Source: Candidatus Poribacteria bacterium
GTDB taxonomy: Bacteria > Poribacteria > WGA-4E > WGA-3G
Length of the DNA stretch: 64,000 nucleotides
Direction of reading: 5' to 3'
NCBI GenBank assembly: GCA_965242965.1
Contig: OZ251518.1
Coordinates: 4,448,001 to 4,512,000 of the forward strand
This document shows positions 4,200 through 62,082 of the stretch, in pieces. The first letter of the stretch is position 1, and the number at the start of each line of letters is the position of its first letter. Under the pieces are notes generated by a model that saw only the letters and a list, made by a program, of their open reading frames with translations, searched no databases and was not told where the DNA came from. The position numbers and the translations under genes were made by a program.

Positions 4200-4799
4200 A
4201 TGCATGCCCAAGAAATCAGCGCGCCGCTCGCCGGTGCCTATCCACCTCCACCGCTCGTGCCGAAGGGTGTACCGACGACACCTGTCACGATGACGTTGGA
4301 AGAATTCCTCGCCAGCGATTTGGAGGGATACGAATACATTGAAGGAGAATTAATACCGAGAATGCCTACCTCAATGAAACACGGCACGGTTAGCATCCAA
4401 CTCAGTTCGCGCTTATTTCAGCACGTTCATGAGAATCAGTTGGGGAATGTCTATCCGGCATCCACAGGGTTCCACGTCGGGGAACGGATGCTCATTCCGG
4501 ATATTGCGTTTCTGTCCAAGGCACGCATCCCCGATGACGCAAATAAGGCATCTCCAATTCCACCAGACCTCGCCGTGGAGGTAGTTTCTCCGACAGACAT
4601 GTTGGACCGGATTGTGTCAAAGGCGTTTGCGTATCTGGCAGCCGGCACACAGCTGGTATGGGTTATTGAACCGAAGTCAGAAACGGTGCTGGTGTATCGT
4701 TCGGAAACCGATATCAAGTTGCTGACGCGAAACGACACGCTCACCGGTGAAGATGTCGTGGAAGGGTTTTCTTGCCCCGTGGCAGAACTTTTTGCCTAG
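4200..4799 (+). CDS. Uma2 family (DUF820) PD-(D/E)XK putative endonuclease
   Basis: YEYIEGEL, PDIAF, PDLAVEVVSP, VWVIEP motifs. Confidence 0.88.
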   Translation: MHAQEISAPLAGAYPPPPLVPKGVPTTPVTMTLEEFLASDLEGYEYIEGELIPRMPTSMKHGTVSIQLSSRLFQHVHENQLGNVYPASTGFHVGERMLIPDIAFLSKARIPDDANKASPIPPDLAVEVVSPTDMLDRIVSKAFAYLAAGTQLVWVIEPKSETVLVYRSETDIKLLTRNDTLTGEDVVEGFSCPVAELFA

Positions 4800-4833
4800 T
4801 TCCAAAATCAACGCATTACGGAGGGATAAGAAG

Positions 4834-5430
4834 ATGCATGCACAAGAAATCAGCGCGCCGCTTGCCGGTGCCTCTCCACCTCCACCGCTCGTGCCGAAGG
4901 GTGCACCAACGACACCTGTCGCGATGACGTTGGAAGAATTCCTCGAAAGCGATTTGGAGGGATACGAATACATTGAAGGAAAATTAATACCGAGAATGCC
5001 TACGTCAATGGAACACGGCACGATTAGCGTCGCCCTCATTTTGTCACTAGGTTCGCACGTTCGTGGCAATCAGTTGGGGGATGTTTATACTGCCGCGGGG
5101 TTCCACGTTGGGGAACGGATGCTCATTCCAGATATTGCGTTTCTGTCCAAAGATCGGATACCCGATGATACAGATAAGGCATCACCAATTCCACCAGACC
5201 TCGCCGTAGAGGTAGTTTCCCCGACAGACGCGTCGGCCCGGATTGAGGAAAAGGCGTTCGCCTACTTGGCAGCTGGCACGCAGCTGGTATGGGTGCTGCG
5301 GCCAAAATCGAAAACTATCCTGGTCTATCGCTCGGAAACCGATATCCAGCTGCTGACACAGAATGACATCCTCACCGGTGAAGATGTCGTGGAAGGGTTT
5401 TCTTGCCCCGTGGCGGCACTTTTTGCATAA
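4834..5430 (+). CDS. Uma2 family putative endonuclease, tandem paralog
   Basis: Closely similar to 4200-4799; GGAGGG RBS before ATG 4834. Confidence 0.88.
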   Translation: MHAQEISAPLAGASPPPPLVPKGAPTTPVAMTLEEFLESDLEGYEYIEGKLIPRMPTSMEHGTISVALILSLGSHVRGNQLGDVYTAAGFHVGERMLIPDIAFLSKDRIPDDTDKASPIPPDLAVEVVSPTDASARIEEKAFAYLAAGTQLVWVLRPKSKTILVYRSETDIQLLTQNDILTGEDVVEGFSCPVAALFA

Positions 5431-11343: not shown

Positions 11344-12272
11344 CGTAGGGCGAGGGGCCTGTCCCTCGCCGTGCTATCGGGCACGCGAGCACTCATCCCT
11401 CTGTAGGGCAGGAGCCCCTGATCTTGCCCGTTCGGGATCAGGCGAGCCCGAACTACAGTCTCTTCAAGGTCCGTAGGACCTTAATGTCTATAGCACATGC
11501 AGTCCGCTAAGTCCTCAAGGTCCTTTAGGTCCTTAATGTTTTTCGGTTGCGTGTGCTGCAGATTAAGAACCTAAAGGACCTTAGTGTTTTTTTGGTCGGG
11601 GTTTCTATAGACATGCAGGACCTAAAGGACCTGAAGAGATGTTTTCACGGGTGTTATCGCGGGGGACAGGCCCCCGCACTACGGTTAAAAAAAGCGTGCC
11701 GTTTACCGTAGGGCGAGGGCCTGTCCCTCGCCGTGCCTCGGTCGGGGAAACGGCGTTGGTTGGCGTGCGTTTTTCGCGCGGGTCGGGCACTCGCGGGGGA
11801 CAGGCCCCCGCGCTACGGGCCCGGAAGGGGTTCGCCTCGCCATCGCGGGGAACAGGCACCCGCGCTACGGTGAAAAAACGTGCCGCTGACCGTAGGGCGA
11901 GGGCCTGTCCCTCGCCATGCCTCGGTCGGGAAGGAAACGGCTTTATCGGCGTGCGTTTTTCGCGCGGGTCGGACGATCGCGGGGGACAGGCCCCCGCGCT
12001 ACGGGCCCGGAAGGGTTCTCCTCGCCATGCGCCGTTCGGGAGCAGGCGCTCCCGAACTACAGTCTCCAACCCCTATAATCTTGCTAATCTTGGAAATCTT
12101 GGAAATCCTGCTCATCTCTGGAGCACGCGTGCGATCGCGGGGGACAGGCCCCCGCGCTACGGGCCCGGAAGGGTTCTCCTTGCCATGCGCCGTTCGGGAT
12201 CAGGCGAGCCCGAACTACAGTCTCCGGGTCCCCTAATCTTGATAATCGTGATAATCCTGGAAATCCTGCTCC
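11344..12272. repeat. Large composite REP-like cluster (GTAG hairpins in inverted pairs, AAGGTCC..GGACCTT palindromes, 9-bp AATCTTGGA-type units)
   Basis: Multiple copies of GTAGGGCGAGGGCCTGTCCCTCGCC and CGCGGGGGACAGGCCCCCGCGCTAC. Confidence 0.85.
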
Positions 12273-12938: not shown

Positions 12939-13544
12939 TTACACTTTCTGCGTCACCATGCTAGCGAGGATGCCGAGGATTTTGTCACACTCGCGGATAG
13001 TGTAACTCGCCACATCTATGTAGAGGTGCCTCTCCATTAACTTCATGAATTTCCATGCGAGTCCGGTTGTGCTTACGCCGTAAACGGTGGGAATGTCATT
13101 GCCTTTTTTTGCATTGAAGCGTTGTGCGGCGAGCATTTCGGCGGTGCACTGCCCGATGCCCGAAAGAAAGTCATCCCGTTTTGCTTCAACGAGCGCGATG
13201 ATAGGTGCCTGTAACAGATACTGCACAGGCGATAGGCTTACCAGAAAATCGCAGACACCTATCAAGCCATCACCAGCATCAACGCTGAAGTCAATCCCAG
13301 AAAAGAGGCTGATACGCCGGTCGAACTGTTCACGGAGTTCCACCAGCACCTCGGCAACAATCAGTTCTGACCTTGCCTTTTCCGTGTTGATCGCTTCCGC
13401 TAACTGAACCTTTCGCTCCAACGCCGTGTTGAGATGGGGCCCCAGTGCCATCGGTTCTACTTCGGCGAAAAGATCTTCGGAGTCGACGATGTCTAATTCA
13501 AACGTCTCAATGACTTTGTCCAACGTGAAATTGCTGTAATCCAT
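12939..13544 (-). CDS. Tandem paralog of 12320-12925
   Basis: Same length (201 aa) with long identical blocks. Confidence 0.7.
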   Translation of the reverse strand: MDYSNFTLDKVIETFELDIVDSEDLFAEVEPMALGPHLNTALERKVQLAEAINTEKARSELIVAEVLVELREQFDRRISLFSGIDFSVDAGDGLIGVCDFLVSLSPVQYLLQAPIIALVEAKRDDFLSGIGQCTAEMLAAQRFNAKKGNDIPTVYGVSTTGLAWKFMKLMERHLYIDVASYTIRECDKILGILASMVTQKV

Positions 13545-19806: not shown

Positions 19807-22182
19807 CTACTTTGATTTCAACGCGCTCCAGCGCGTCGCCAGTTTACCGCGCGCGGCGACATGTCCTTTCAACCGTATCGTGCCTATTGCCTGACGCTCA
19901 CCACCCAACGAAACCTCCTCTAACCGGTAATAGTAGATGACGTTCGGCTTGGCAGAGGTGTCTGTCCACGTGTAGGTGTGCTTTTCACCTGACGTGCCAG
20001 TCCCGGGAATAAGCGCGGGAGTGACTCGGATAAACGCGCTGTCCCGCGCTGTGCTACGCAGGATATTGAATCCCGCGGTATCCACCTCTGATGCGGTGGC
20101 CCAGGTGAGCACCACCCCTGCATCGGTGCGCGCCGAACGGAAATGTGACAACACCACAGGCAATGGCCCACCTGTGCGATACCCGGGGGTGCCGATATCT
20201 GTCGACAGCCCATAATAAGTTCCAACCGCTAGCGAGACAGATGCCGCGCTCACCCAACTCTCGGCGGCGGTGCCAAGCAGCGGCGCGCCTGCTTGATACT
20301 GCCGCAGCATCGACGCACGCCGCCCATCAACTGTCTCATCAGATGGCACCTCCCACGCAGGCGTATCTTTTGTGCGACGCTCCCCATCTAAATTGCCCAC
20401 CTAGTCGATGAGCGTTCCCGCCGTATTATATAACTTCAGCGAGAACCCCGCCGCATTCAATACATCATTGCGACGCGCCCGCTGGTCGAAGGCATTTGGA
20501 TGCTCAAAGTAGAGGTTGTAGAGTTTTCCTTCTGGGAATTGCCCGGATGTCTCACCGCGCCAGGTGACGAACAGCACCGTCTGATTCGGCAACACCGTAA
20601 ACGGCTTCAGCGAGACAGTTTCGTGCCGATGCCGCCGCGCGTTTTCTACGTCCAGCGACTCCACCTCCAGATGCCAGCCTTCCAGATTCACTGCCGCTGT
20701 TCGAGAACTATTGTAGAGTTCTATCCACTGCGGCGCGGAGCGACGGCCCACCTTGTTAGGCAACATCAACTCACTGATGCTGAGCGTGCCAATGGGCACT
20801 TGTCGCGTGACAGCAGTGTTTGCATACCCGGGTGTGCCGAGGCTCGTGGCCGGGTTTGCATGCAGCCGGTACCCGAGGCCGCCCTGGTATCCAGCGGCTG
20901 TCCATGCAGAGGCGAGGTATCCACGGGTATCCTCGTCGGTGCGCTGCCAGACTTCGCCTACTGTGAAAGGTGGCGCATCGCTGGCAGACAGCGTGTCTTG
21001 AAGGGGCCACACCTGTGTGTCGTTATCAAAGTCCCAGGCGGTGCGGAAGTAATTGCCTGCGACATCTTCAAACGCGGCTGGCTGGCCATTTTTATCGGTA
21101 GCACTGCGCAGCAGCAACAGATAGCGCGTTGCAGGCAATCTCAATTGTTCCGCGACGAGATAGCGATGCTGTGCGCCTTTTTTCCCTGTGCCTGCCTCAA
21201 TGTTTATGCCACCCGCCAGGGCGGTCTGACTCGGTGCAGTGTTGACGATGAGAAGGACTTCTCCAGCCGGGAGGATGTATTCGGGAAAGGTGACGATATC
21301 GGCATCATGCGTGTCTGCGTCAACAATGCTCACTTCCCAGTTAGCGAGGGATAGAGCTGCATCGCTGATGTTTCGCACCTCCAGCCAGTCATCTCTGTCG
21401 TCTTGCGCATTGCAAATCTCGTTGAAAAGCAGCCGATTCATGGCAACAATAGATGGACGCGGCTCGCGGACGTAGAACAGGTACCGCTCTCCCGCGAGCG
21501 ATAGACTTTTCCCTTCGTCTCCATAAAGGAATCCCTGCCCTGTGTGAGGATTGCGTAGGATTCCATCGACAAGGCTCACTTCTGAGTCTTCCACCAGTTT
21601 TCCGTAGACAAACTCCCAGTGCGAGGACCCGTTGCCGATGTAGCGATTGGCGAATGCCCGTTTCGGAACCGGATCGTCGCCTGTCAAGATTTCAATGTAA
21701 GGTCTTTGTTCGGGGAGAGCAGTGGGGTCGGCGAGGCGCACGAAGTCTTCGCTAAAAGTTATCCGCAGTTGCACTGCTTCACCGGCAGCATACGTCGGTG
21801 TCGCCTCTGGTGGGACAACGCCGAACGCTTCTTGGACGACAGGTTCAGCAGCCTGTCCTTCTGGAACAACCGCACGTTCTTCTATAAAACGATCATCTGG
21901 GACAGTTCCTCCAGCTGCTGGGACTAGAGTGCCAAGAGGATCATCACGTTCCAGGATTCCATCTCGCAGTGTCCCTGTGGTAGTCGTGCCATCCGCGGGA
22001 TAATAGACGTGAATAGTCTGCTCTTCCTCTTCGTAGGGGTTCACGGGCTCATCTAAGTCAATACTATAGATGAATACCACCTGCGTGGCCTGAGCCGGGA
22101 AGATCGGTTGCATTAACACGACTCCTCCCGTGAGGAGCACCAGAACTAAACGGGTAAGCATTGAAAACGTATTTTTCAGCAT
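19807..22182 (-). pseudogene. Secreted lamin-tail-domain protein interrupted by one in-frame TAG at 20401-20403
   Basis: ORFs 20401-22182 and 19807-20400 are contiguous in one frame and together align by eye with the C-terminal half of 49268-53338. Confidence 0.8.
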
Positions 22183-22210
22183 GAGAGATATCTCCTTTCT
22201 GTAGTAAACT

Positions 22211-22982
22211 GAGGGTGTTTCATAAATCGCTCAACGTCGTGGGGAAACCCGCTCGGATGCGCGTGTGGCATCCGAGGGCCCCGCGCTACGATGAAAAAAT
22301 GGTTCTTGAGCTATCGCGGGGGACAGGCCCCCGCGCTACGATAAAAAAACGCCACCCCCGCACCGTAGGGCGAGGGCCTGTCCCTCGCCATCGTTCAATC
22401 TCCACGCTGATTCTGTAGTTCAGGATCGCCTGATCCTGAACTGTTTGCGATCAGGCGATCGCAAACTACAGAGGTGGGCCCGAGGCGCGCCCGGTAGGCG
22501 AGACCTCCTGGTCTCGATGCAATAGGGCGGCGCGCCGCCCGAGGCCGCGGCGGCAGAAAGCCTCTTCATCGTAGGGCGAGGGCCCTCGCAGGTTTCCCTC
22601 GTCATCGTTTTGCCGCCAAACCTCCTCACCTCTGTAGGTCAAGATCGCCTGATCTTGACCCGTTTGTGATCAGGCGATCACAAACTACAGAGGGGAAACA
22701 CATCGTGACGATAGAGATCGCGGGGGACAGGCCCCCGCGCTACGATGAAAAAAACGCTATCCCCTTATCGTAGGGCGAGGGCCTGTCCCTCGCCATGCCT
22801 AGGTCTACCGAACGATCGCGGGGGACAGGCCCCCGCGCTACGGTAAAAAAAACAGTTCTTGAGCCATCGCGGGGGAAACCCGCTCGGATGCGCGTCTGGC
22901 ATCCGAGGGCCCCCGCGCTACGGGAACATCGAGACCGGGAGGGCTCTCCTACCGGGAAGAAATCGACTTATGAAACACCCTC
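22211..22982. mobile_element. Non-autonomous MITE-like element filled with REP hairpins
   Basis: Terminal inverted repeats GAGGGTGTTTCATAA(A/G)TCG and flanking 8-bp direct repeat AGTAAACT (22203-22210, 22983-22990). Confidence 0.75.
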
Positions 22983-23185
22983 AGTAAACTTGCTTACAGT
23001 TCTTGTTAAGGGTTATTGTGTTCATTTCCGGATAGGTAGGAGAAACCTCCTGGTCTCGATGCCCTTTTGGTAGGCGCGCCCGCGGATTGAAACCCCTGCA
23101 CCATCGGACATGGATGGGCCGCCTACCGGAGAAAATGGCGTTCTCACCCAGCTCCCTAATAAGGCGAGCGGGTTCCGCTTGCACG

Positions 23186-24529
23186 CTAGGAGAGTTGCCC
23201 TAAACTCGCGGTGCTATCGCCTAATTGCGGTAAATGGACATCCATGCGATTGAGCAAGGATAGCCACAGATTGTTCAGCGGTGTCTCCTTTGGATACCGG
23301 ATATGTCGCCCACTTTTCAGGGTGTCGCAACCGTTACCTGCCAGCAAAATCGGCAAGTCGTGGTGACTGTGGCGATTGCCATCTGCGTTTCCACTGCCGT
23401 AGACAACCATGGAATGATCGAGCAGTGAACCTTCGCCTTCCGGGGTTGCGTCCATTTTTTCCAACAGGTATGCCAACTGCTGCGTATGGAATATGTTAAT
23501 CTGGCAGATTTTCGCCTTCTTCTCTTCATCGCCGCCGTGATGCGAAAGATCGTGGTGTCCCTCAGAGACGTTGATAAACGGATACGGCTTGTTACTCCCT
23601 TCATTTGCCAACACAAAAGTGACGATGCGCGTGACATCCGCCTGAAAAGCAAGGACAATTAGATCCATCATGAGTCGCAGATGCGCCTGATAATCCGCTG
23701 GGATTTCGGCAGGGACGGCGTAATCCGGCGTTTCTATCGGCGGAAACTTTTCAACGGCATCGATGCGGCGTTCAATGTCTCGAATCGCGGTGAAGTATTC
23801 GTCAAGTTTGCGGACATCGTTGCCGCTGACGTGGCGGAGCAAATCTTTTGAATCCTGTCTCACAAAATCAAGAATGCTTTTGCGTTCTCCATCGCGCTGT
23901 TGCCTTTGCGAATCTTGCATAGAGGTAAAGAGGCGTTCAAAGGCGAGTTTTGGATGCACCTCTTTCGGGAGCGGTTGCGTGGCGGAACGCCAAGAGAGCG
24001 TTGAGGAATAAACGCAGCTATACCCAGAATCGCAATTGCCTGCTTTTCTCCCCGGGTCGATGCCGAGTTCAAGCGAGGGGAGCCGTGTGCGATTGCCGAT
24101 ATGGGCAGCGGCGGCCTGATCGACCGAGGTACCAGCGTGGATGTCGGCACCGTCGGTTTTACGAGGTTGCGCGCCGGTAAGGAATGCCGCCATCGCTCGC
24201 GCGTGGTCTCCGCCGCCATCGCCGTTTGCGCGCGCCTTATCCGCTGTGAGCCCACTCAGCACCAGCGTTTTCTCTTTCACCTGTTCCAACGGTTGCAAGA
24301 TAGCGGTGAGTTCATAGTCGCTTCCCACCTGCGCCGGTGTCCAGTCAGCCATATTTTTCCCATTCGGCACGTAAAGGAACGCCATCCGATTGGGGGCTGT
24401 TTGCACGCTAGGTGCGGGCGCGTTCGCCCATGCCGTTATGGGCCCCATCGCTTCCAGCCACGGGACGGCAATGCTCACGCCGAGCCCGCGCAAAAAGGTT
24501 CTACGTGAAAGGTGTTTTGATGTGTTCAC
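23186..24529 (-). CDS. DUF1552 family protein with Tat-like RRTFL leader
   Basis: LSRRTFLRG, YVPNG, SVDQ, PSLELG, CDSGYSC, HHDLSHH, GNRHSH. Confidence 0.85.
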   Translation of the reverse strand: MNTSKHLSRRTFLRGLGVSIAVPWLEAMGPITAWANAPAPSVQTAPNRMAFLYVPNGKNMADWTPAQVGSDYELTAILQPLEQVKEKTLVLSGLTADKARANGDGGGDHARAMAAFLTGAQPRKTDGADIHAGTSVDQAAAAHIGNRTRLPSLELGIDPGRKAGNCDSGYSCVYSSTLSWRSATQPLPKEVHPKLAFERLFTSMQDSQRQQRDGERKSILDFVRQDSKDLLRHVSGNDVRKLDEYFTAIRDIERRIDAVEKFPPIETPDYAVPAEIPADYQAHLRLMMDLIVLAFQADVTRIVTFVLANEGSNKPYPFINVSEGHHDLSHHGGDEEKKAKICQINIFHTQQLAYLLEKMDATPEGEGSLLDHSMVVYGSGNADGNRHSHHDLPILLAGNGCDTLKSGRHIRYPKETPLNNLWLSLLNRMDVHLPQLGDSTASLGQLS

Positions 24530-27079: not shown

Positions 27080-27152
<73 letters not shown>

Positions 27153-27191
27153 TTATTGGAGATACACGAAAAGCGAAAACTTATAGAGAGA

Positions 27192-27263
27192 CTCCCCCAG
27201 ACGGACTCGAACCGCCGACACGGTGGTTAACAGCCACCTGCTCTACCACTGAGCTATGGGGGA
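27192..27263 (-). tRNA. tRNA-Asn(GTT), second copy
   Basis: Identical to the first except one base shorter in the D loop. Confidence 0.95.
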
Positions 27264-27761: not shown

Positions 27762-30095
27762 TTAAGGTTTCGCCGAAAATATCTGAATTTTGTCACCCGA
27801 TTTTGCTACCACACTTCGCGCTGGGATGACGAAACCTTCATGCTCAAAAGCCGCCTCTCCGAAGTTCGCTAACAATTCAACGGCATTCCCAAACTCGGTG
27901 CGTTGGACAAATCTGTCGGGGCTCAGCCATTCAAAATCTGTCATCGCCTTTCCGCCGATTTTTCGGTGAAGCGGCGAGAAAAACGCGTAGTGTCTTTTGA
28001 TGCGCGCGGCCTGCTTTTCAAACGCCGCCAGATTCAGATGATACAACGGCGGCACGTTATAGAGCAATTCCAACAGAGTCAGGTTCTCCGCCGCCTCCCG
28101 AAACTTTAGACTGCTAGCGAGCCAATGATTCGTCGTTATCAGCGAATCATGAAACACCGTTTGATAGAGCGGCAACCGAAACCTCGGGTCAAAATAGAGA
28201 TGCAGATAGCGTTGTTTGAGAGGCACCTGCTTGACAAAAATTGCGGGTGCTTCAGGCGGCCAGTAGCCGCCGATGTAGTAGGGTGAATCTTTCGCCTTCA
28301 TGTCCGCATCACCCCATCCGATGACAGGTGTCATCATTCCGTGTGCGAAGTGGAGAGTCGCCGCGGCATAGGCGGCACCTCCTTCCGAACCGACTACCTT
28401 ATGATGCGTATCCCGAATCCACGCCATTCGCTTTAACCGTGCCTGCATGTCATCAAGTTGCGTCGCCGGATGTTCCGCCGAATAATCGTCAAAGAGTTCG
28501 CCGTATGCATCGCAATCGATGAACCACGAATTGAACGGCGTTGGCATTTGCGCGACGATGGCGTTCACCCGCTTTTCAACGAACGGTTGCGCCACCAAGG
28601 GGCTTAAATGATACCCTTTCTGCTGAAACCCTCTGTTTTTTGTGCCATCAGCGTTGACAATCGCGCCGCGTTCGTAAAGTGCCAAATCAAACTGCGCCGT
28701 TTCCCATGTCTCCGGCTCCTGTGGATGATGGATGCTGTGATAGGAATCGTAGGGGCCTATCAGATAGCCGAGCTCTTTTGCCTTTGCGACAGCGACAGGG
28801 TGGCGAAACCCTTCCTGCCACGAATCCACGCCGAGCCAGAGCCGGTCCAACCCATTTTCGGTGAATCTCTCCAAGAGTTTCAGGGAGAGTCCGCCTCCCC
28901 ATTCATCTGGATGCCGAAGTTCATCAGGAAATATCGCGTAGAAGAGAAGACTGTTGATACGGCAAACTTCCGTGAACGAAAGGGATGCAACGTCTTTCGC
29001 GAGTAATGTTTCCGCTTCCAGTGGAAGAGATGTCTCAGATTTTTGGACGCGCGCGGACAAACGCTGTGTTGTCTCGTGCGTCTCTAACAGTTCGCTCAAA
29101 GCACGACAGACAACCCGTTGCGCGTAGGGGTCCGGCAGTCCCTCCTTCACGGCTTGCTGCGCTTCCGGATTTAGTTGTTCCCAGAGCTCCTTCTCCACGT
29201 AGGAGAGACCTCCCGGTCTCGATGATGTTTCTCTATTTAGCTTTGCCGCGAATGCCTGTCTGTCGGTTATATCGTATCGGCTGAGGAGCGAACCGCCCCA
29301 CAGATAGATATGCGCCGCACCGAGCAGCTTCTCAGCCGCCGGTAGTTTCGCGACTTTTTCAGCAAAGGTGACGAATTCCGCATTTTGCATCAGCCAGCGT
29401 CGATAGTATTTCGCCGGTGCGACAGGCGATGCTTCGCCCAACGCAATCCGCACGCCGTAAACTTTCCGCTCCCAATTGGGCATAAACGCATGCGAGAGTT
29501 GCATACCCAAGCCAGATTCCATCGTTGCCCTGAAGGCCGCCCTGAAGGAAATTCGGTTATTGAACGGATTCGTCAAAATATAGGTAAGCGTCCATTCGCC
29601 GAAATCTACGCCCCAAAACGGCATTGCGAGTCCCGCTGTGGTATTTATCTGCCCTTGTTCGGACAAGAAGTCTTGCCACAATTTGTCATCTTTCGGGACA
29701 TAACTTCCCTCAAAAAACGGGAGCATGTAGCCGTGAAGTGCGGGCGTGTCCGGAATTATCGGCCACGTCAAATTCCCCGCTGTCGCCGAGACGAATTCAA
29801 CAGCGAGGGATGCGTCAATCAATTCAACGCTGACGGTGAGGGATGCTTCTGGCAGTTCCCAACTCGCCCGGTTTTCGTGTTGGACGAGTGCGGTTACGTT
29901 TCCGAGTCCGGTTTGTCCTTTTGAAATTGGCACCGTCGGTTTGCCTGTCGGGCGCGCGAGGACTTCAAGCGATTGCGGCGCGATTTCAACAGTCCATTTC
30001 TCATTGCTCAGCCGAACGATTTCGGGAGTAGCACTGAAACCGATTGCATGCATCAGAAACACCCCGATACACATCCCATATTTTGCGATGCGCAA
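27762..30095 (-). CDS. Putative glycoside hydrolase related to GH101/GH129
   Basis: GAAHIYLWG, GYLIGPYDSY, WFIDCDA, VVGSEGG, FRLPLYQTVFHD; probable TTG start after GAGG. Confidence 0.65.
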   Translation of the reverse strand: MRIAKYGMCIGVFLMHAIGFSATPEIVRLSNEKWTVEIAPQSLEVLARPTGKPTVPISKGQTGLGNVTALVQHENRASWELPEASLTVSVELIDASLAVEFVSATAGNLTWPIIPDTPALHGYMLPFFEGSYVPKDDKLWQDFLSEQGQINTTAGLAMPFWGVDFGEWTLTYILTNPFNNRISFRAAFRATMESGLGMQLSHAFMPNWERKVYGVRIALGEASPVAPAKYYRRWLMQNAEFVTFAEKVAKLPAAEKLLGAAHIYLWGGSLLSRYDITDRQAFAAKLNRETSSRPGGLSYVEKELWEQLNPEAQQAVKEGLPDPYAQRVVCRALSELLETHETTQRLSARVQKSETSLPLEAETLLAKDVASLSFTEVCRINSLLFYAIFPDELRHPDEWGGGLSLKLLERFTENGLDRLWLGVDSWQEGFRHPVAVAKAKELGYLIGPYDSYHSIHHPQEPETWETAQFDLALYERGAIVNADGTKNRGFQQKGYHLSPLVAQPFVEKRVNAIVAQMPTPFNSWFIDCDAYGELFDDYSAEHPATQLDDMQARLKRMAWIRDTHHKVVGSEGGAAYAAATLHFAHGMMTPVIGWGDADMKAKDSPYYIGGYWPPEAPAIFVKQVPLKQRYLHLYFDPRFRLPLYQTVFHDSLITTNHWLASSLKFREAAENLTLLELLYNVPPLYHLNLAAFEKQAARIKRHYAFFSPLHRKIGGKAMTDFEWLSPDRFVQRTEFGNAVELLANFGEAAFEHEGFVIPARSVVAKSGDKIQIFSAKP

Positions 30096-30978: not shown

Positions 30979-31560
30979 CTATTCAAAAAGTTCTGCCACT
31001 TGACAGGCGAACCCTTCCACGACATCCTCACCGGTGAGCGTATCCCCGGGTCGGAGCAGCGTCATATCTGTCTCCGAACGATACACCGTGACGGTTTTTG
31101 CGATGGGTTCGATCACCCAGACGAGGCGTGTTCCTGCGTTCAGATAGATAAATGCCTTTTCGATGACACTATACAACTTATCCGATGGGGAGACTACCTC
31201 CACGGCGAGGTCTGGTGGTACTGGGGATGCTTTTCTCAGATCAGCGGGTATCCCTGCCGCTGAGAGAAAAGCGACATCCGGCCTGAGCACACGCTCGCCT
31301 ACCCGAAACCCCGCCTCTGCGAGAACCTTCCCTCCCAATCGATTTTCGCGTACGTGCACGAGCAGAAAACTACTGATATTCACGCAGATTTCAGCGTGTT
31401 CCAAGGACGTAGCGGACATGGGAATGAGTTCTCCTTTGACGTATTCATAATCGTCTAAGTCGCTGTCCAAGAATTCCTCCAACGTCATTGTGGTGGGCAA
31501 TGGCGCGGGAATTTCTGGCGGCCATCCGTGCGCCTCTATTGGATTCACCATCACATGCAT
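30979..31560 (-). CDS. Uma2 family putative endonuclease
   Basis: Paralog of the 4200/4834 genes (PDVAF, PPDLAVEVVSP). Confidence 0.88.
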   Translation of the reverse strand: MHVMVNPIEAHGWPPEIPAPLPTTMTLEEFLDSDLDDYEYVKGELIPMSATSLEHAEICVNISSFLLVHVRENRLGGKVLAEAGFRVGERVLRPDVAFLSAAGIPADLRKASPVPPDLAVEVVSPSDKLYSVIEKAFIYLNAGTRLVWVIEPIAKTVTVYRSETDMTLLRPGDTLTGEDVVEGFACQVAELFE

Positions 31561-31639
31561 CCTCCGTTTGCGATATCAATTTTTCGGTGATTTATGTCCT
31601 ACAATTAATGATACCATGTCCGGCGCGTATTTGCAAGTC

Positions 31640-33561
31640 TTATCGGTAAAACGCGCGGTTCAGTTCCTTGTCCGCATCGCTGATGCCAAAATTCTCGTCC
31701 TCCATCTCCGAGAGGTTAACGTAGAGCTGATTCTTATCCAGCAGCTCCATCAACAGCGACTGCTGCTTTTTCACGTCGCCGATGGCGATGAAATCATCTA
31801 TCGCATCTTCAGGCACTTCGGGATTGATATACCAATTGAGGAATGACCCCCCCTTGCCATTTCGCGCCAGAGAACCACGAGTTCGTCGCTAGTGCGCGCC
31901 GCTTGGATGCGTTCCACGAAAGCGGCGTTATAGGGCATCAGTTCACAGAAAATGAAATCGCCACCATCCTGCCAATTGACAGATTGAGAAATGCCACCTT
32001 TTTCGCCCGCGAGAACCTTTTTTAGTCGTGCTGCCGTGACGGTTGCCACGTAGTCCATCTGTTCCACGAGAATCCATTGGCGGTTCATTTTGTGCGCAAC
32101 CGCCGCCGTTGTGCCTGAACCTGCGAAAAAGTCTAGAATAATATCGCCGCTTTCTGTCAACCACTTGATAATCCGCATGAGAATCTCTTCGTTTTTTTCA
32201 TGCGCAAACGGTGACTGACGGCCCGCAACGCTAATATCTGTCCAATTTTCGCTCAGCAACATCGTATCGGTTGCGGGAATGTAGTGCTCAGGGGTACCGT
32301 TTTTGCTCAACCGAACCAATTCAAAATCGGCGTGATTCAAGATGCTATTTTCGCGGCGATACCGGTGATAAGCGTCGTCAATGTGCGCATCGGTGATGTC
32401 CGCTTCGGCAATTCCTTGCGCCTGCAGATAGTCGATGAGCGTCCGATAGTTTTCAACGGCATCGTGTGTGCGCCGCTGCGCCCAACGCCACTGTCCTGTT
32501 GCTGGCGTGATGCCGAAAAGTTCAAAGCGCATCGTCGGCCGGTCTGTGCCGCGCCAGTGGTTGTTCCACGAACTCGCACGGTTACCCTTCAATTTCTTAA
32601 ACAGATTCGGGATTTTGATGTGACTCTCCTTGCTGTAAAAGAGAATCGTATCGTAGCCCGCGTTCAATTTATCGATGGCATCAAACTGCTTTTGAAGGCT
32701 TTTTTGCCCTTTCTTCACGATAATTCCGTTCCGAAAGTTGGCGCGCCCAAACACCTCGTCGCAGAGACATTTGAGATAGGCTAACTCGCGATTGTCGATC
32801 TGGATGAGGATAAACCCATCGGGACTCAGCAGTGCCTTTGCTACCTCCAACCGATTTTTCATGAAGGTGAGCCACGTGGAATGCGTAAAACTATCGTTAT
32901 ACTGAAACGAGTCATTGTCTGTATTATACGGCGGATCGATGTAGACACACTTGACCTTGCCCCGGAACTGCAACTTCAAACTGTGCAATGCCAACAGATT
33001 ATTACCCTTAACGAGCAGGTTCTCCTGAATCGTGCCATCATCGGCGCGTTTGAGTGCAGCTACCGGCTGTTCGCCGGCGAGCGTGTGTCGCTGCCAATTC
33101 GTCATCACCTTCGGCGCGAGAAGTCGGTTAATCTCATCAGGCGCGAGGAGCTCGTTGAAGAATACCTCGGTGCGTTTTTCCTCTTCGCGCGTCTGGCCGC
33201 CTTCCAAGACGCAGTCCTTGTAGGGCCAGACGAGTGCGACTTCGCCGCGTTCCGGCAGAAACTTTTCGTCAATGTTCAACCCGATTTTATTGCGAAATCG
33301 GGTATATGCATTGGCGAGGAAGTTTTTATCGGAGAGATAGGTAATGAAGGCGTTATAGTTGAATACCCACCGCCCGTTAATTTCGTCAAAGAACTGTGCC
33401 TCAATCTCCTTGTCTGTCATTAACAGCGTGAGGAGGCCGGTGTCAAGTTGCCATGCGCAGTCTTTGATGGCGGCGGGGATGAGTTGGCCTGCGTTGTCAA
33501 CGAATCGCGCCTCTGTTTTGAGTAGGCGAATGAGTTTTTGGTTGAAGTTCTCTGTTGGCAT
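31640..33561 (-). CDS. mod: Type III-like site-specific DNA amino-methyltransferase (Mod), frameshifted near the C-terminus
   Basis: YIDPPY catalytic and DFFAGSGTT SAM motifs in beta order; Mod-like tail (SFLNWY...LDKNQLYVNLSE...NRAFYR*) lies in another frame after G7 at 31847-31853. Confidence 0.85.
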
Positions 33562-33593
33562 CGGTGGTTTCCTTTCGGCGTTTGCTATCAAGT

Positions 33594-33778
33594 GAGAGTG
33601 TTTCATATCTCGTTGTTGTCAAAATGGTTTCGTGATACCCCGAACGCTTGCGTTTCCCCTGTAGGAGAGACCTCCTGGTCTCGATGTTCCCGTAGCGCGG
33701 AGGACAGGCCCCCGCGCTACGGGGCAATCGAGACCCGAGGGCTCTCCTACCGAACACATCGAGATATGAAACACCCTC
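33594..33778. mobile_element. Short MITE-like element with the same terminal inverted repeat family
   Basis: GAGAGTGTTTCATATCTCG ... CGAGATATGAAACACCCTC (18/19) enclosing REP hairpins; no target duplication seen. Confidence 0.55.
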
Positions 33779-34699: not shown

Positions 34700-35596
34700 C
34701 TACTTCTTCACTTGCGCTTTTATGCGGCCGAAGATAAATTCGCAGGCACTATACTTTTTTCGGTTGTCAATATAACAACTGAGTTTGCGCAAATCCCTAC
34801 CGTCGATAATCCAATTCTTATCTAAATCCATTCCTCGGATCCTGTCGATAGAATCGCGCGGTTCCCAAGTAGCAAAAGCACGGTTGAGATACGCGCCATA
34901 GTTGTCAATGAGAAGCCGTAGATCGTTATTATCTACTCTCCCATTGTAGTCAACATCCCCATTAGAACGTTGATTCACTAACCGCGTGTTGAATACACGA
35001 ATCGAATTTGGCTCGGGGGACAAGTTAGGTTCGTAATAAAACTTGTCGGCACCGTTATCATAAAAAAGTTGAACTCTCACAAATTCAACCTTCGGATTCA
35101 CGCCAGGGGTCAGGATGCGGATGTTCCTGAACTTTAGCCTGACCAATGTCCCAGAAGGTCTTCGGTGAAAATTCCCTTTATCGAGATAAACGGTATCTAA
35201 TCCGTGCGTATGAATCAGGCGTTCCTGAAACCATACGCGATCGCGACGATTAAGGCCCGCCGTGAGATTTTTCTCATAAACTGCTGCTGAGAAAAAACCC
35301 TCACGAGGAATTGGCGCGACAGCCTCATCGAATATCAAGACTTGCGGCGAGTATCGGAAATCGATTTGAAAACCGACTATCCTTCTTCGTTCCACATCCT
35401 GATACGCATTGAGGATTTTGACGTTAATGAAGAATTCCTGAAACGATTTCTGCGGCATCACCGTTTGATAGTCCTCAAAGTAAACTACCGGGTCAGTGTG
35501 CTCCAGGACCCGGGGGTATTGTGCGTTAGACACACTCGCCAGAGTCATCACAAATAAAATGACTAAGGCAATCAAACCTGGTTGATAGAATTTCAT
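34700..35596 (-). CDS. Secreted protein with cohesin-like and dockerin/EF-hand-like segments
   Basis: Signal peptide; GFQIDFRYSPQVL, SGTLVRLKF; GDVDYNGRVDNNDL and DLDKNWIIDGRDL loops. Confidence 0.55.
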   Translation of the reverse strand: MKFYQPGLIALVILFVMTLASVSNAQYPRVLEHTDPVVYFEDYQTVMPQKSFQEFFINVKILNAYQDVERRRIVGFQIDFRYSPQVLIFDEAVAPIPREGFFSAAVYEKNLTAGLNRRDRVWFQERLIHTHGLDTVYLDKGNFHRRPSGTLVRLKFRNIRILTPGVNPKVEFVRVQLFYDNGADKFYYEPNLSPEPNSIRVFNTRLVNQRSNGDVDYNGRVDNNDLRLLIDNYGAYLNRAFATWEPRDSIDRIRGMDLDKNWIIDGRDLRKLSCYIDNRKKYSACEFIFGRIKAQVKK

Positions 35597-35878
35597 GCTA
35601 ACCACCTTTATGTTAGAGTCTGTGCCGACCGGGATGAGCCCGTGACGACACCTATTAATTTTTTCCGTTGCACTGCATGCTTGCAGATACCGCAATGCTT
35701 GACGGTGAATACACCTCAGCGTCGCAACAGTTCGCAAACTCGCCGGTGTTTTTTGAGTTGCGTGCTTCAACGCAAGTGAACGCAGCGCGCTTAATCATGA
35801 ACAGCAGTATTAGGATACCACAAAACGCCAAAAATGGGAAATAAAAAACGTTCGCGTAGCATTTTGTGGAACAACAGA

Positions 35879-35926: not shown

Positions 35927-36430
35927 GAGGGTGTTTCATATTTTGATGCGTTCGGTAGGAGAGACCTCGGGGCTCGATGTTCCCGTAGTGCGGGGGGGGG
36001 CTCGGAGGTTTCCATACGCGCATCCGAGCGGGTTTCCCCAGCGATGGCTCAAGAACCGTTTTTTATCGTAGCGCGGGGGCCTGTCCCCCGTGGTGGCTCA
36101 AGTTTTTATCGTAGCGCGGGGGCCCTCGGATGCCATACGCGCATCCGAGCGGGTTTCCCCCGCGATCTCCATCGTGACGATGTGTGTTTCCACCTCTGTA
36201 GTTCGTGCTCGCCTGATCACAAATAGGTCAGGATCGGGCGATCCTGCCCTACAGGGGTGAAGAGGTCTGGTTGCAAAACGATCGCGAGGGACAGGCTCTC
36301 GCGCTACGGGCCGTGAGCGGTTATCTGAAAGAGAAAGGACAGGCCCTCGCACTTCGGGACGCGATCTCGGGATGAGAACGATTGTTGTCTCAACCGGGCG
36401 ATCGCGAGGGACAGGCCCTCGCGCTACGGG
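35927..36430. repeat. REP cluster beginning with a solo GAGGGTGTTTCATA terminus
   Basis: Same end module (terminus, REP-B, REP-A) as at 22982 and 33778. Confidence 0.75.
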
Positions 36431-60546: not shown

Positions 60547-60730
60547 AGATTTTTCCTCCTATGTAAGTGAGGGTGTTTCATAAATCCGTTTCGGTATTTA
60601 TCCTGCCTTGGAGGGCGGGCGAATACCGGAAGGTATCGGGCCCACCGCTGTAGTTCGGGATCGCCTGATCCCGAACGGGTCAAGATCGGGGGATCTTGAC
60701 CTACAGGGGTGATGCGTCAGGAGGTCTCTC

Positions 60731-61684: not shown

Positions 61685-62082
61685 GGGGAAACTCCTTCGC
61701 AATCTCAACTATGATTTCATTTTACCATATTGCCGAAAATATTTTCAAGCGATTTTTTCAGGGTGTTTCATAACTCCGTTTCGGTAGTTATCCCTATTGG
61801 GAACGAATATCGAGCAAGCGATGTCCCCGTAGGAGAGACCTCCTGGTCTCGATTTTTCGTATCGGGACAGGGATGTCCCTCCTACCGGGAAAACATCAAG
61901 ACTCCCGCTGTCGTTTGCAAGCACCTGAGCACAACCCGTTCAGGAGCAGGTGCTCCTGAACTACAGGCGGCGCGCACCCGAGCCCTGTAGTTCGGGTGCG
62001 CCTGCACCCGATCGGGTCAAGAGAAGACACGCCTGCCCGAGAGAATAAGTCTAGTAGTTTGCAAGTGCTTGTTAAAAAAAAC

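Follow-up and report, generated by a model that had tools for sequence, protein, structure and literature searches.

We consider it likely, from sequence comparison, that a REP-filled unit of 772 bp in Candidatus Poribacteria is a non-autonomous DDE element that was mobilised in trans and whose repeat array was remodelled afterwards. The unit is a gene-less element of MITE type at 22211-22982 of the window, i.e., the whole stretch of 64,000 nucleotides that was analysed. Its parts, together with the neighbouring gene, are as follows.

19807-22182, minus strand: lamin-tail-domain gene (PF00932), a neighbour outside the element, with an in-frame TAG at 20401-20403.
22203-22210, no strand: left copy of the target duplication, AGTAAACT, 8 bp.
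22211-22229, plus strand: left terminal inverted repeat (TIR), matching the 3' end of an autonomous IS at 19/19 positions.
22225-22299, plus strand: left end module, a spacer plus a long-loop GTAG REP.
22239-22953, no strand: mosaic array of about 14 GTAG-tagged hairpins from three families.
22878-22963, minus strand: right end module, a spacer and a 7-bp-stem REP that directly abuts the following REP.
22964-22982, minus strand: right TIR, 18/19 against both the left TIR and the 3' end of the IS.
22983-22990, no strand: right copy of the target duplication, 8 bp.

The octamer AGTAAACT abuts both outer borders of the element as a perfect 8-bp duplication, and the termini are complementary at 18 of 19 positions, confirming at 22211-22982 the inverted repeat and duplication that an earlier note on this DNA had described around 772 bp. 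Because the duplicated 8-mer is almost palindromic, the boundary between TIR and duplication is ambiguous in this copy by itself; the autonomous IS described below sets the border at the first G of the terminus and the length of the duplication at 8 bp. A 15-bp terminus matched the window nine times with three or fewer mismatches, against 1.07 matches expected, and none of 100 shuffles reached nine. Seven of these matches are clear copies; the other two, at 28147 and 40474, were taken as chance and set aside.

The interior had been described as mostly REP hairpins of several types, with no transposase, and this description stood. Searching the window by tblastn with the transposase of the candidate helper IS gave zero matches, and none of 41 ORFs (likely genes picked from the ORF lists, and thus a subset of all ORFs in the window) matched a transposase family in Pfam. 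Among the hairpins, the first family comprises a type with an 8-bp stem and 5-nt loop plus a long-loop variant, the second two 9-bp-stem doublets (22412-22472 and 22631-22691), and the third a 7-bp-stem type (22494 and 22952). The element contains 15 GTAG/CTAC tetranucleotides, 11 of which clear the hairpin filter; by eye, the remaining tags are three long-loop or variant hairpins and one stray. As defined in Table 1 of PMC3733652, the GTAG REP superfamily has an unpaired GTAG flanking a stem-loop of 5-13 bp and is clustered in intergenic DNA, a definition that the interior fits. Repeats present elsewhere in the window cover 91.5% of the element, and the computed folding of the array is much more stable than that of 20 shuffles (z -15.7). 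All ten matches of the element in Rfam lay far under the gathering score, and no family was assigned.

The window as a whole is rich in such repeats: its 64 kb contain 112 GTAG hairpins that pass the filter, and the main REP core occurs 80 times. Since most of the other Poribacteria loci compared have zero such REPs, the expansion is lineage-specific. In the literature, GTAG REPs are tied to HUH/RAYT enzymes, and a RAYT presumably serves the REPs here as well. A HUH-motif pattern for a RAYT gene had no match in 248,982 bases (the window plus 14 Poribacteria loci), a result that says little about the presence of a RAYT genome-wide. A further palindromic repeat family, with GGACCT/AGGTCC words, occurs at 11460-11640 of the window and also inside an 863-bp element of another genome, AGPOR5.

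If the unit moved by DDE transposition, an IS with the same ends should exist, as the earlier note had pointed out. A genome scan with the terminus, in which the flanking bases were left free, yielded at least 35 loci; among the matches listed, 14 were from Poribacteria (two of which overlap on the same contig), six were from Chloroflexota and 15 were others, the last group (including L031) being single matches used for the terminus scan only. A complete autonomous IS of 1,110 bp was found at L033 10001-11110: its two ends agree in the 17 terminal bases, it is flanked by an exact duplication of 8 bp, and its ORF encodes 332 aa. L032 carries a copy that is 82.8% identical and has a 7/8 duplication. 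The anticipated IS with a DDE transposase was thus found in other Poribacteria. The 772-bp unit has the features of a MITE, i.e., TIRs, a duplication, no internal transposase and an autonomous IS sharing its termini, the last resting on L033 and L032, with none seen in the window's own lineage. Three further loci (L003, L005 and L029) hold internally deleted copies of the IS, and the ends of four Poribacteria contigs fall only a few bases from the terminus, which would be expected of a multi-copy element. The IS-bearing loci contain zero or one copy of the main REP, the helper transposase was not found in 87 kb of the REP-rich genomes (the window plus the AGPOR5 loci), and among the genomes seen there were zero co-occurrences of the helper IS and a REP-filled MITE in one genome.

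Some loci from the scan have other arrangements. At L029 9920-11741, two IS 3' ends in direct orientation lie around a 534-aa ORF, which we take to be pectate-lyase-like. In a Ktedonobacteraceae genome, an element of 3,320 bp (L018 4115-7434) shares the terminus and is flanked by an exact duplication of 7 bp; it carries a DDE transposase that is split, along with several passenger ORFs, and looks like a transporter IS. The second match in L031 was in the same orientation, with no transposase-like ORF apparent, and was dropped.

The helper transposase scores above the PF13612 cut-off of 27 bits (33.7 and 39.2 bits), and residues D121, D213 and E269 are invariant across 20 aligned homologs, picked from at least 120. 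Among 3354 candidates, 1136 were homologs of the transposase; the Atlas neighbours of a stored homologue were DDE_Tnp_1 clusters or unnamed clusters. The nearest NCBIfam match was NF033520 (IS982), which was not passed (55.0 and 58.7 bits against a cut-off of 130); neither were the IS5 and IS1182 models, whose cut-offs are 110-270 bits and on which the two Poribacteria proteins scored 25 bits or less. Moreover, of 30 near-full-length relatives, picked from at least 150, none passed an IS-family NCBIfam cut-off. The IS982 family is described as single-ORF DDE ISs of 845-1282 bp with direct repeats of 2-10 bp and PF13612 (PMC7335449), and the helper IS is similar in size and organisation, being about 1 kb (1110 bp) with a single ORF, a D/D/E triad and an 8-bp repeat. 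However, the IS982 ends described there begin with AC, following the rule 5'-AC(N)6T(N)5TT, whereas the ends of L033 and L032 begin with GAG, and the protein averages about 290 aa in IS982 compared with 332 aa here. GAG-starting ends are also present in a 34%-identical relative of the helper IS from Spirosoma. By the NCBIfam models and the ends, we file the helper as an unclassified group within the IS5/IS982/IS1182 clan, of which a named ISNCY member may exist. The group is abundant, yet it is uncovered by the NCBIfam family models. Against plasmids, the transposase matched one record (34%) and a distant homolog eight (28-34%), under the names ISNCY, IS982, plain transposase and hypothetical; the terminus gave five plasmid matches with E values of 0.7-9, i.e., chance. 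A Parageobacillus element was rejected, its ends being only loosely similar to those here.

The IS and the 772-bp unit share their ends and little else: past position 19 of the TIR, just 7-12 of 41 bases match. They also share a target preference. Twelve IS-type insertion flanks (four with few interior bases before the contig end, and omitting the second ends of three paired copies as well as L023, the interior of which is not IS-like) gave the consensus A-N-T-T-A-A-N-T, with A1, T4 and T8 each in 12/12. By this helper-IS matrix, the duplication of the 772-bp unit ranks in the top 0.17% of 8-mers in the window, and that of the 863-bp AGPOR5 element fits the consensus in full and outscores almost every window 8-mer. 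For the remaining REP-capped flanks the fit is poorer (top 0.1-21%), which is what older or rearranged copies would be expected to show. These ends make it highly improbable that the termini belong to a HUH/tyrosine-transposase system with TIRtron-type repeats, rather than to a DDE element. TIR repeats tied to RAYT-like enzymes are on record, some of them fused to degenerate GTAG units (PMC3733652), but the same ends here flank a DDE transposase gene and an 8-bp duplication in L033 and L032, and IS200/IS605-type enzymes are described as acting without TIRs and larger duplications (PMC2817692); this explanation is largely refuted.

The window and the AGPOR5 genome contain further REP-capped termini.

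33594-33778, no strand: sister element of 185 bp, paired TIRs around REP hairpins, duplication gone.
35927-36309, plus strand: solo TIR; the REP array that it caps and the right half of the 772-bp element are colinear.
60569-60712, plus strand: solo TIR capping a REP array.
61759-61966, plus strand: solo TIR with its first base altered, capping a REP array.
L026 10001-10863 (AGPOR5): REP-filled element of 863 bp with a perfect 8-bp duplication.
L026 12797-13059 (AGPOR5): REP-filled element of 263 bp with a 13/15 flanking repeat, not 8 bp.

There are four paired REP-filled elements (772, 185, 863 and 263 bp), all with different interiors. The duplication is a perfect 8 bp in two of them, a 13/15 repeat in one and absent from one; the 863-bp element bears out the expectation that further paired copies with duplications would be found. 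The two AGPOR5 elements are separate MITEs, a single 3-kb element at L026 10001-13059 having been rejected. The smaller lies at the stop codon of what we take to be a jag-like gene and before what is presumably a tRNA-modification GTPase gene. Among REP-capped termini, four of 12 are solo (one of the four is present in two overlapping loci); none has a partner end within 3 kb, and the flank recurs nowhere. At all seven window termini the nearest filtered GTAG hairpin lies 58-205 bp inward and 932-7751 bp outward, distances that depend on a filter that overlooks some hairpins, e.g., a REP at 23035, beyond the right end of the 772-bp unit. When the window was compared with the 35 loci from the terminus scan for an orthologous site, it gave repeat matches only.

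Whether the REPs moved with the TIRs is addressed by the sequence immediately inside the ends. The left inner 90 nt of the 772-bp unit is 94.8% identical over 77 nt to one end of another element, in AGPOR5 (L026 13059), and the right end module is 93.6% identical over 78 nt to an AGPOR5 solo end (L026 19768); between these AGPOR5 sites and the 772-bp locus there was no gene-level similarity. Over 397 nt, the right half of the unit aligns colinearly with the array at 35927, at 76%. In 87 kb there are seven direct junctions between the two terminal REP types, the query among them, and every one lies 43-83 bp from a TIR, although the first REP type is present in 40 copies. Because TIR-spacer-REP junctions recur at unrelated loci, TIR-REP modules appear to have been copied as units. 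Gene conversion could explain part of the module similarity, and for several termini uncapped arrays are among the top matches of the inner 90 nt. End types are mixed among elements. In 87 kb, copies resemble one another at 94-95% in their end modules and at 76% over a colinear stretch of about 400 nt, with no two full interiors alike. Since the four paired elements differ inside, the cargo is probably a non-fixed package, with stability limited to the terminal REP modules. The idea that REP arrays may travel with a DDE transposase is partly supported: the end modules recur with the TIRs, and the array interiors differ from copy to copy.

On these observations we suggest the following course of events. 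A transposase of about 330 aa, encoded by the 1.1-kb Poribacteria IS, would recognise the 17-19-bp TIRs and insert anything between them at an AT-rich, near-palindromic 8-bp target (A-N-T-T-A-A-N-T) in intergenic DNA, duplicating the target. In the REP-rich Poribacteria lineage, TIRs would have become fused to GTAG REP hairpins, and the resulting end modules, TIR and REP jointly, would have been copied to new sites, so that REPs could hitch-hike on DDE transposition. Thereafter, REP turnover and recombination with the numerous uncapped arrays may have reshaped the middle of the array; the varied interior lengths, the shuffled end types and the removed or swapped (solo) ends would be the outcome.

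Two other histories would leave the same elements behind. In one, which we regard as unlikely, the site first received an IS or a short, empty MITE, which made the duplication, and REPs later invaded or replaced its interior in place, so that no REPs moved by DDE transposition. REP arrays do occupy most intergenic spaces of this genome (28 similarity clusters in the window), interiors vary among copies, and L003, L005 and L029 are internally deleted IS copies. However, an IS converted in place should keep one of each IS end, whereas both ends of the unit resemble the IS 3' end; IS sequence is missing past position 19; and identical TIR-spacer-REP junctions are found at unrelated loci in two genomes. 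Conversion in place may still apply to the middle of the array. The other history, in which two independent solo TIR-REP ends were united by separate insertion or recombination and the flanks match through target preference, draws on the commonness of solo termini (4/12), the mixed end types between elements and the strength of the target preference. We judge it very improbable: two independent targets drawn from the matrix would be identical at 8/8 positions with a probability of about 0.014, yet the duplication is perfect in two of the four pairs. We therefore retain mobilisation in trans followed by remodelling as the preferred account. DDE carriage would be a side route of REP spread, because only five of the 28 repeat similarity clusters in the window carry the terminus; most REP clusters there have no TIR, which bounds the effect.

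The same terminus bounds fixed-length MITEs at five of the Chloroflexota loci.

L022 10001-10172, L035 10001-10172 and L004 2850-3021: MITE of 172 bp, copies 97% alike.
L002 4202-4332 and L019 10001-10131: MITE of 131 bp in two copies that are 86% alike; a 4-bp duplication flanks one of them.

Around the 172-bp MITEs the duplications are exact, 5 bp long and of two different sequences, and a hairpin inside this type fits the CGTC-1 pattern taken from PMC3733652, with an 8-bp stem starting with AT and a 4-nt loop. By eye, most Chloroflexota copies appear to be inserted in the loop of a GTAG-type hairpin. The duplication length of 4-5 bp points to a different transposase for these MITEs, for which no gene was found. 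CGTC REPs are described in PMC3733652 without a dedicated transposase. A tentative reading, spanning the GTAG arrays in Poribacteria and the CGTC-type hairpin in Dehalococcoidia, is that the IS group recurrently spawns 'REP shuttles', in which MITE ends capture host palindromic repeats and seed them at new sites; we think this doubtful. If true, REP arrays in general could be founded by a DDE route, and CGTC REPs would have a vehicle for the first time.

The architecture is known in kind, since MITEs holding a REP or a repeat array are already published. QMITE2 of Coxiella burnetii (PMC5896051) is likewise a MITE with TIRs, site-unique direct repeats of 7-11 bp and an internal GTAG REP, and its truncated copies without TIRs resemble plain REPs. 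However, QMITE2 is described as 150-190 bp long with one REP and no named mobiliser, whereas the Poribacteria elements span 185-863 bp, hold a mosaic of REPs from several families, about 14 at most, and have a candidate helper IS that agrees in ends, duplication length and target. BrickBuilt of Porphyromonas gingivalis (PMC4596501) has IS5-type TIRs starting with GAG and a variable array of up to 991 nt; as reported there, both ends are kept in 4 of 19 copies, there is no transposase remnant, and the array is a private 23-nt minisatellite, whereas the cargo here is the general GTAG REPs of the genome. REP/BIME units, REPINs and RAYTs (PMC3733652, PMC2817692, PMC3184786) share the GTAG hairpins, the 7-9-bp stems and the intergenic dimers or clusters; in the accounts of BIMEs in these papers, TIRs and duplications are not described. 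The reverse link between ISs and REPs, i.e., insertion of ISs into REPs, is well known (PMC3184786).

What is new is the mosaic REP cargo, the stable TIR-REP junctions, the matching helper from an unclassified IS group and the Chloroflexota parallel. A search of openly available article text found no report of Poribacteria REPs or MITEs or of a TIR-bounded array of several REP families, and the literal 14-bp terminus had zero occurrences, on either strand, in open literature text. The main text of PMC11602168 makes no mention of Poribacteria, and the supplements with its MITE catalogue may bear on novelty. The spread of REP clusters is usually credited to RAYTs; the fusion of TIR and REP, together with a candidate transposase whose target and duplication length are known, makes a second, DDE-driven route testable.

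These elements also point to a source of insertions into 5'-UTRs in Poribacteria. As the earlier note had stated, the terminus of the 772-bp unit lies 28 bp from the start of the lamin-tail gene, at 22182, and the gene carries a nonsense codon, the in-frame TAG; the unit is a few bases upstream of the ribosome-binding site of the gene. The named homologs of the protein are from Poribacteria, as are the loci that share the REPs, and the host is most likely a member of the Poribacteria. A relative of 793 aa that is 96.6% identical (P0122, 10 members) has Q at the position of the TAG at 20401, which is either a nonsense change at strain level or an error of assembly. Amber recoding was rejected because TAG terminates 14 of 33 genes in the window and the relative has Q. 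A promoter scan of 22100-23250 gave zero sigma-70-like sites, and an effect on transcription is therefore unsupported; terminator-like sites numbered three, against 1.1 expected.

Elsewhere in the window, a type III restriction-modification methyltransferase gene (31560-33606) is frameshifted near 31850, at seven consecutive Gs, with no restriction-subunit gene adjoining and the 185-bp sister element just upstream. The nearness of the elements to two disrupted genes, lamin-tail and methyltransferase, is suggestive only. Uma2-family ORFs number three (4200-5430 and 30979-31560), including a tandem pair, ORFs of 356 aa (34700-35770) and 201 aa (12939-13544) have no Pfam match, and two tRNA-Asn(GTT) genes stand in tandem at 27080-27263.
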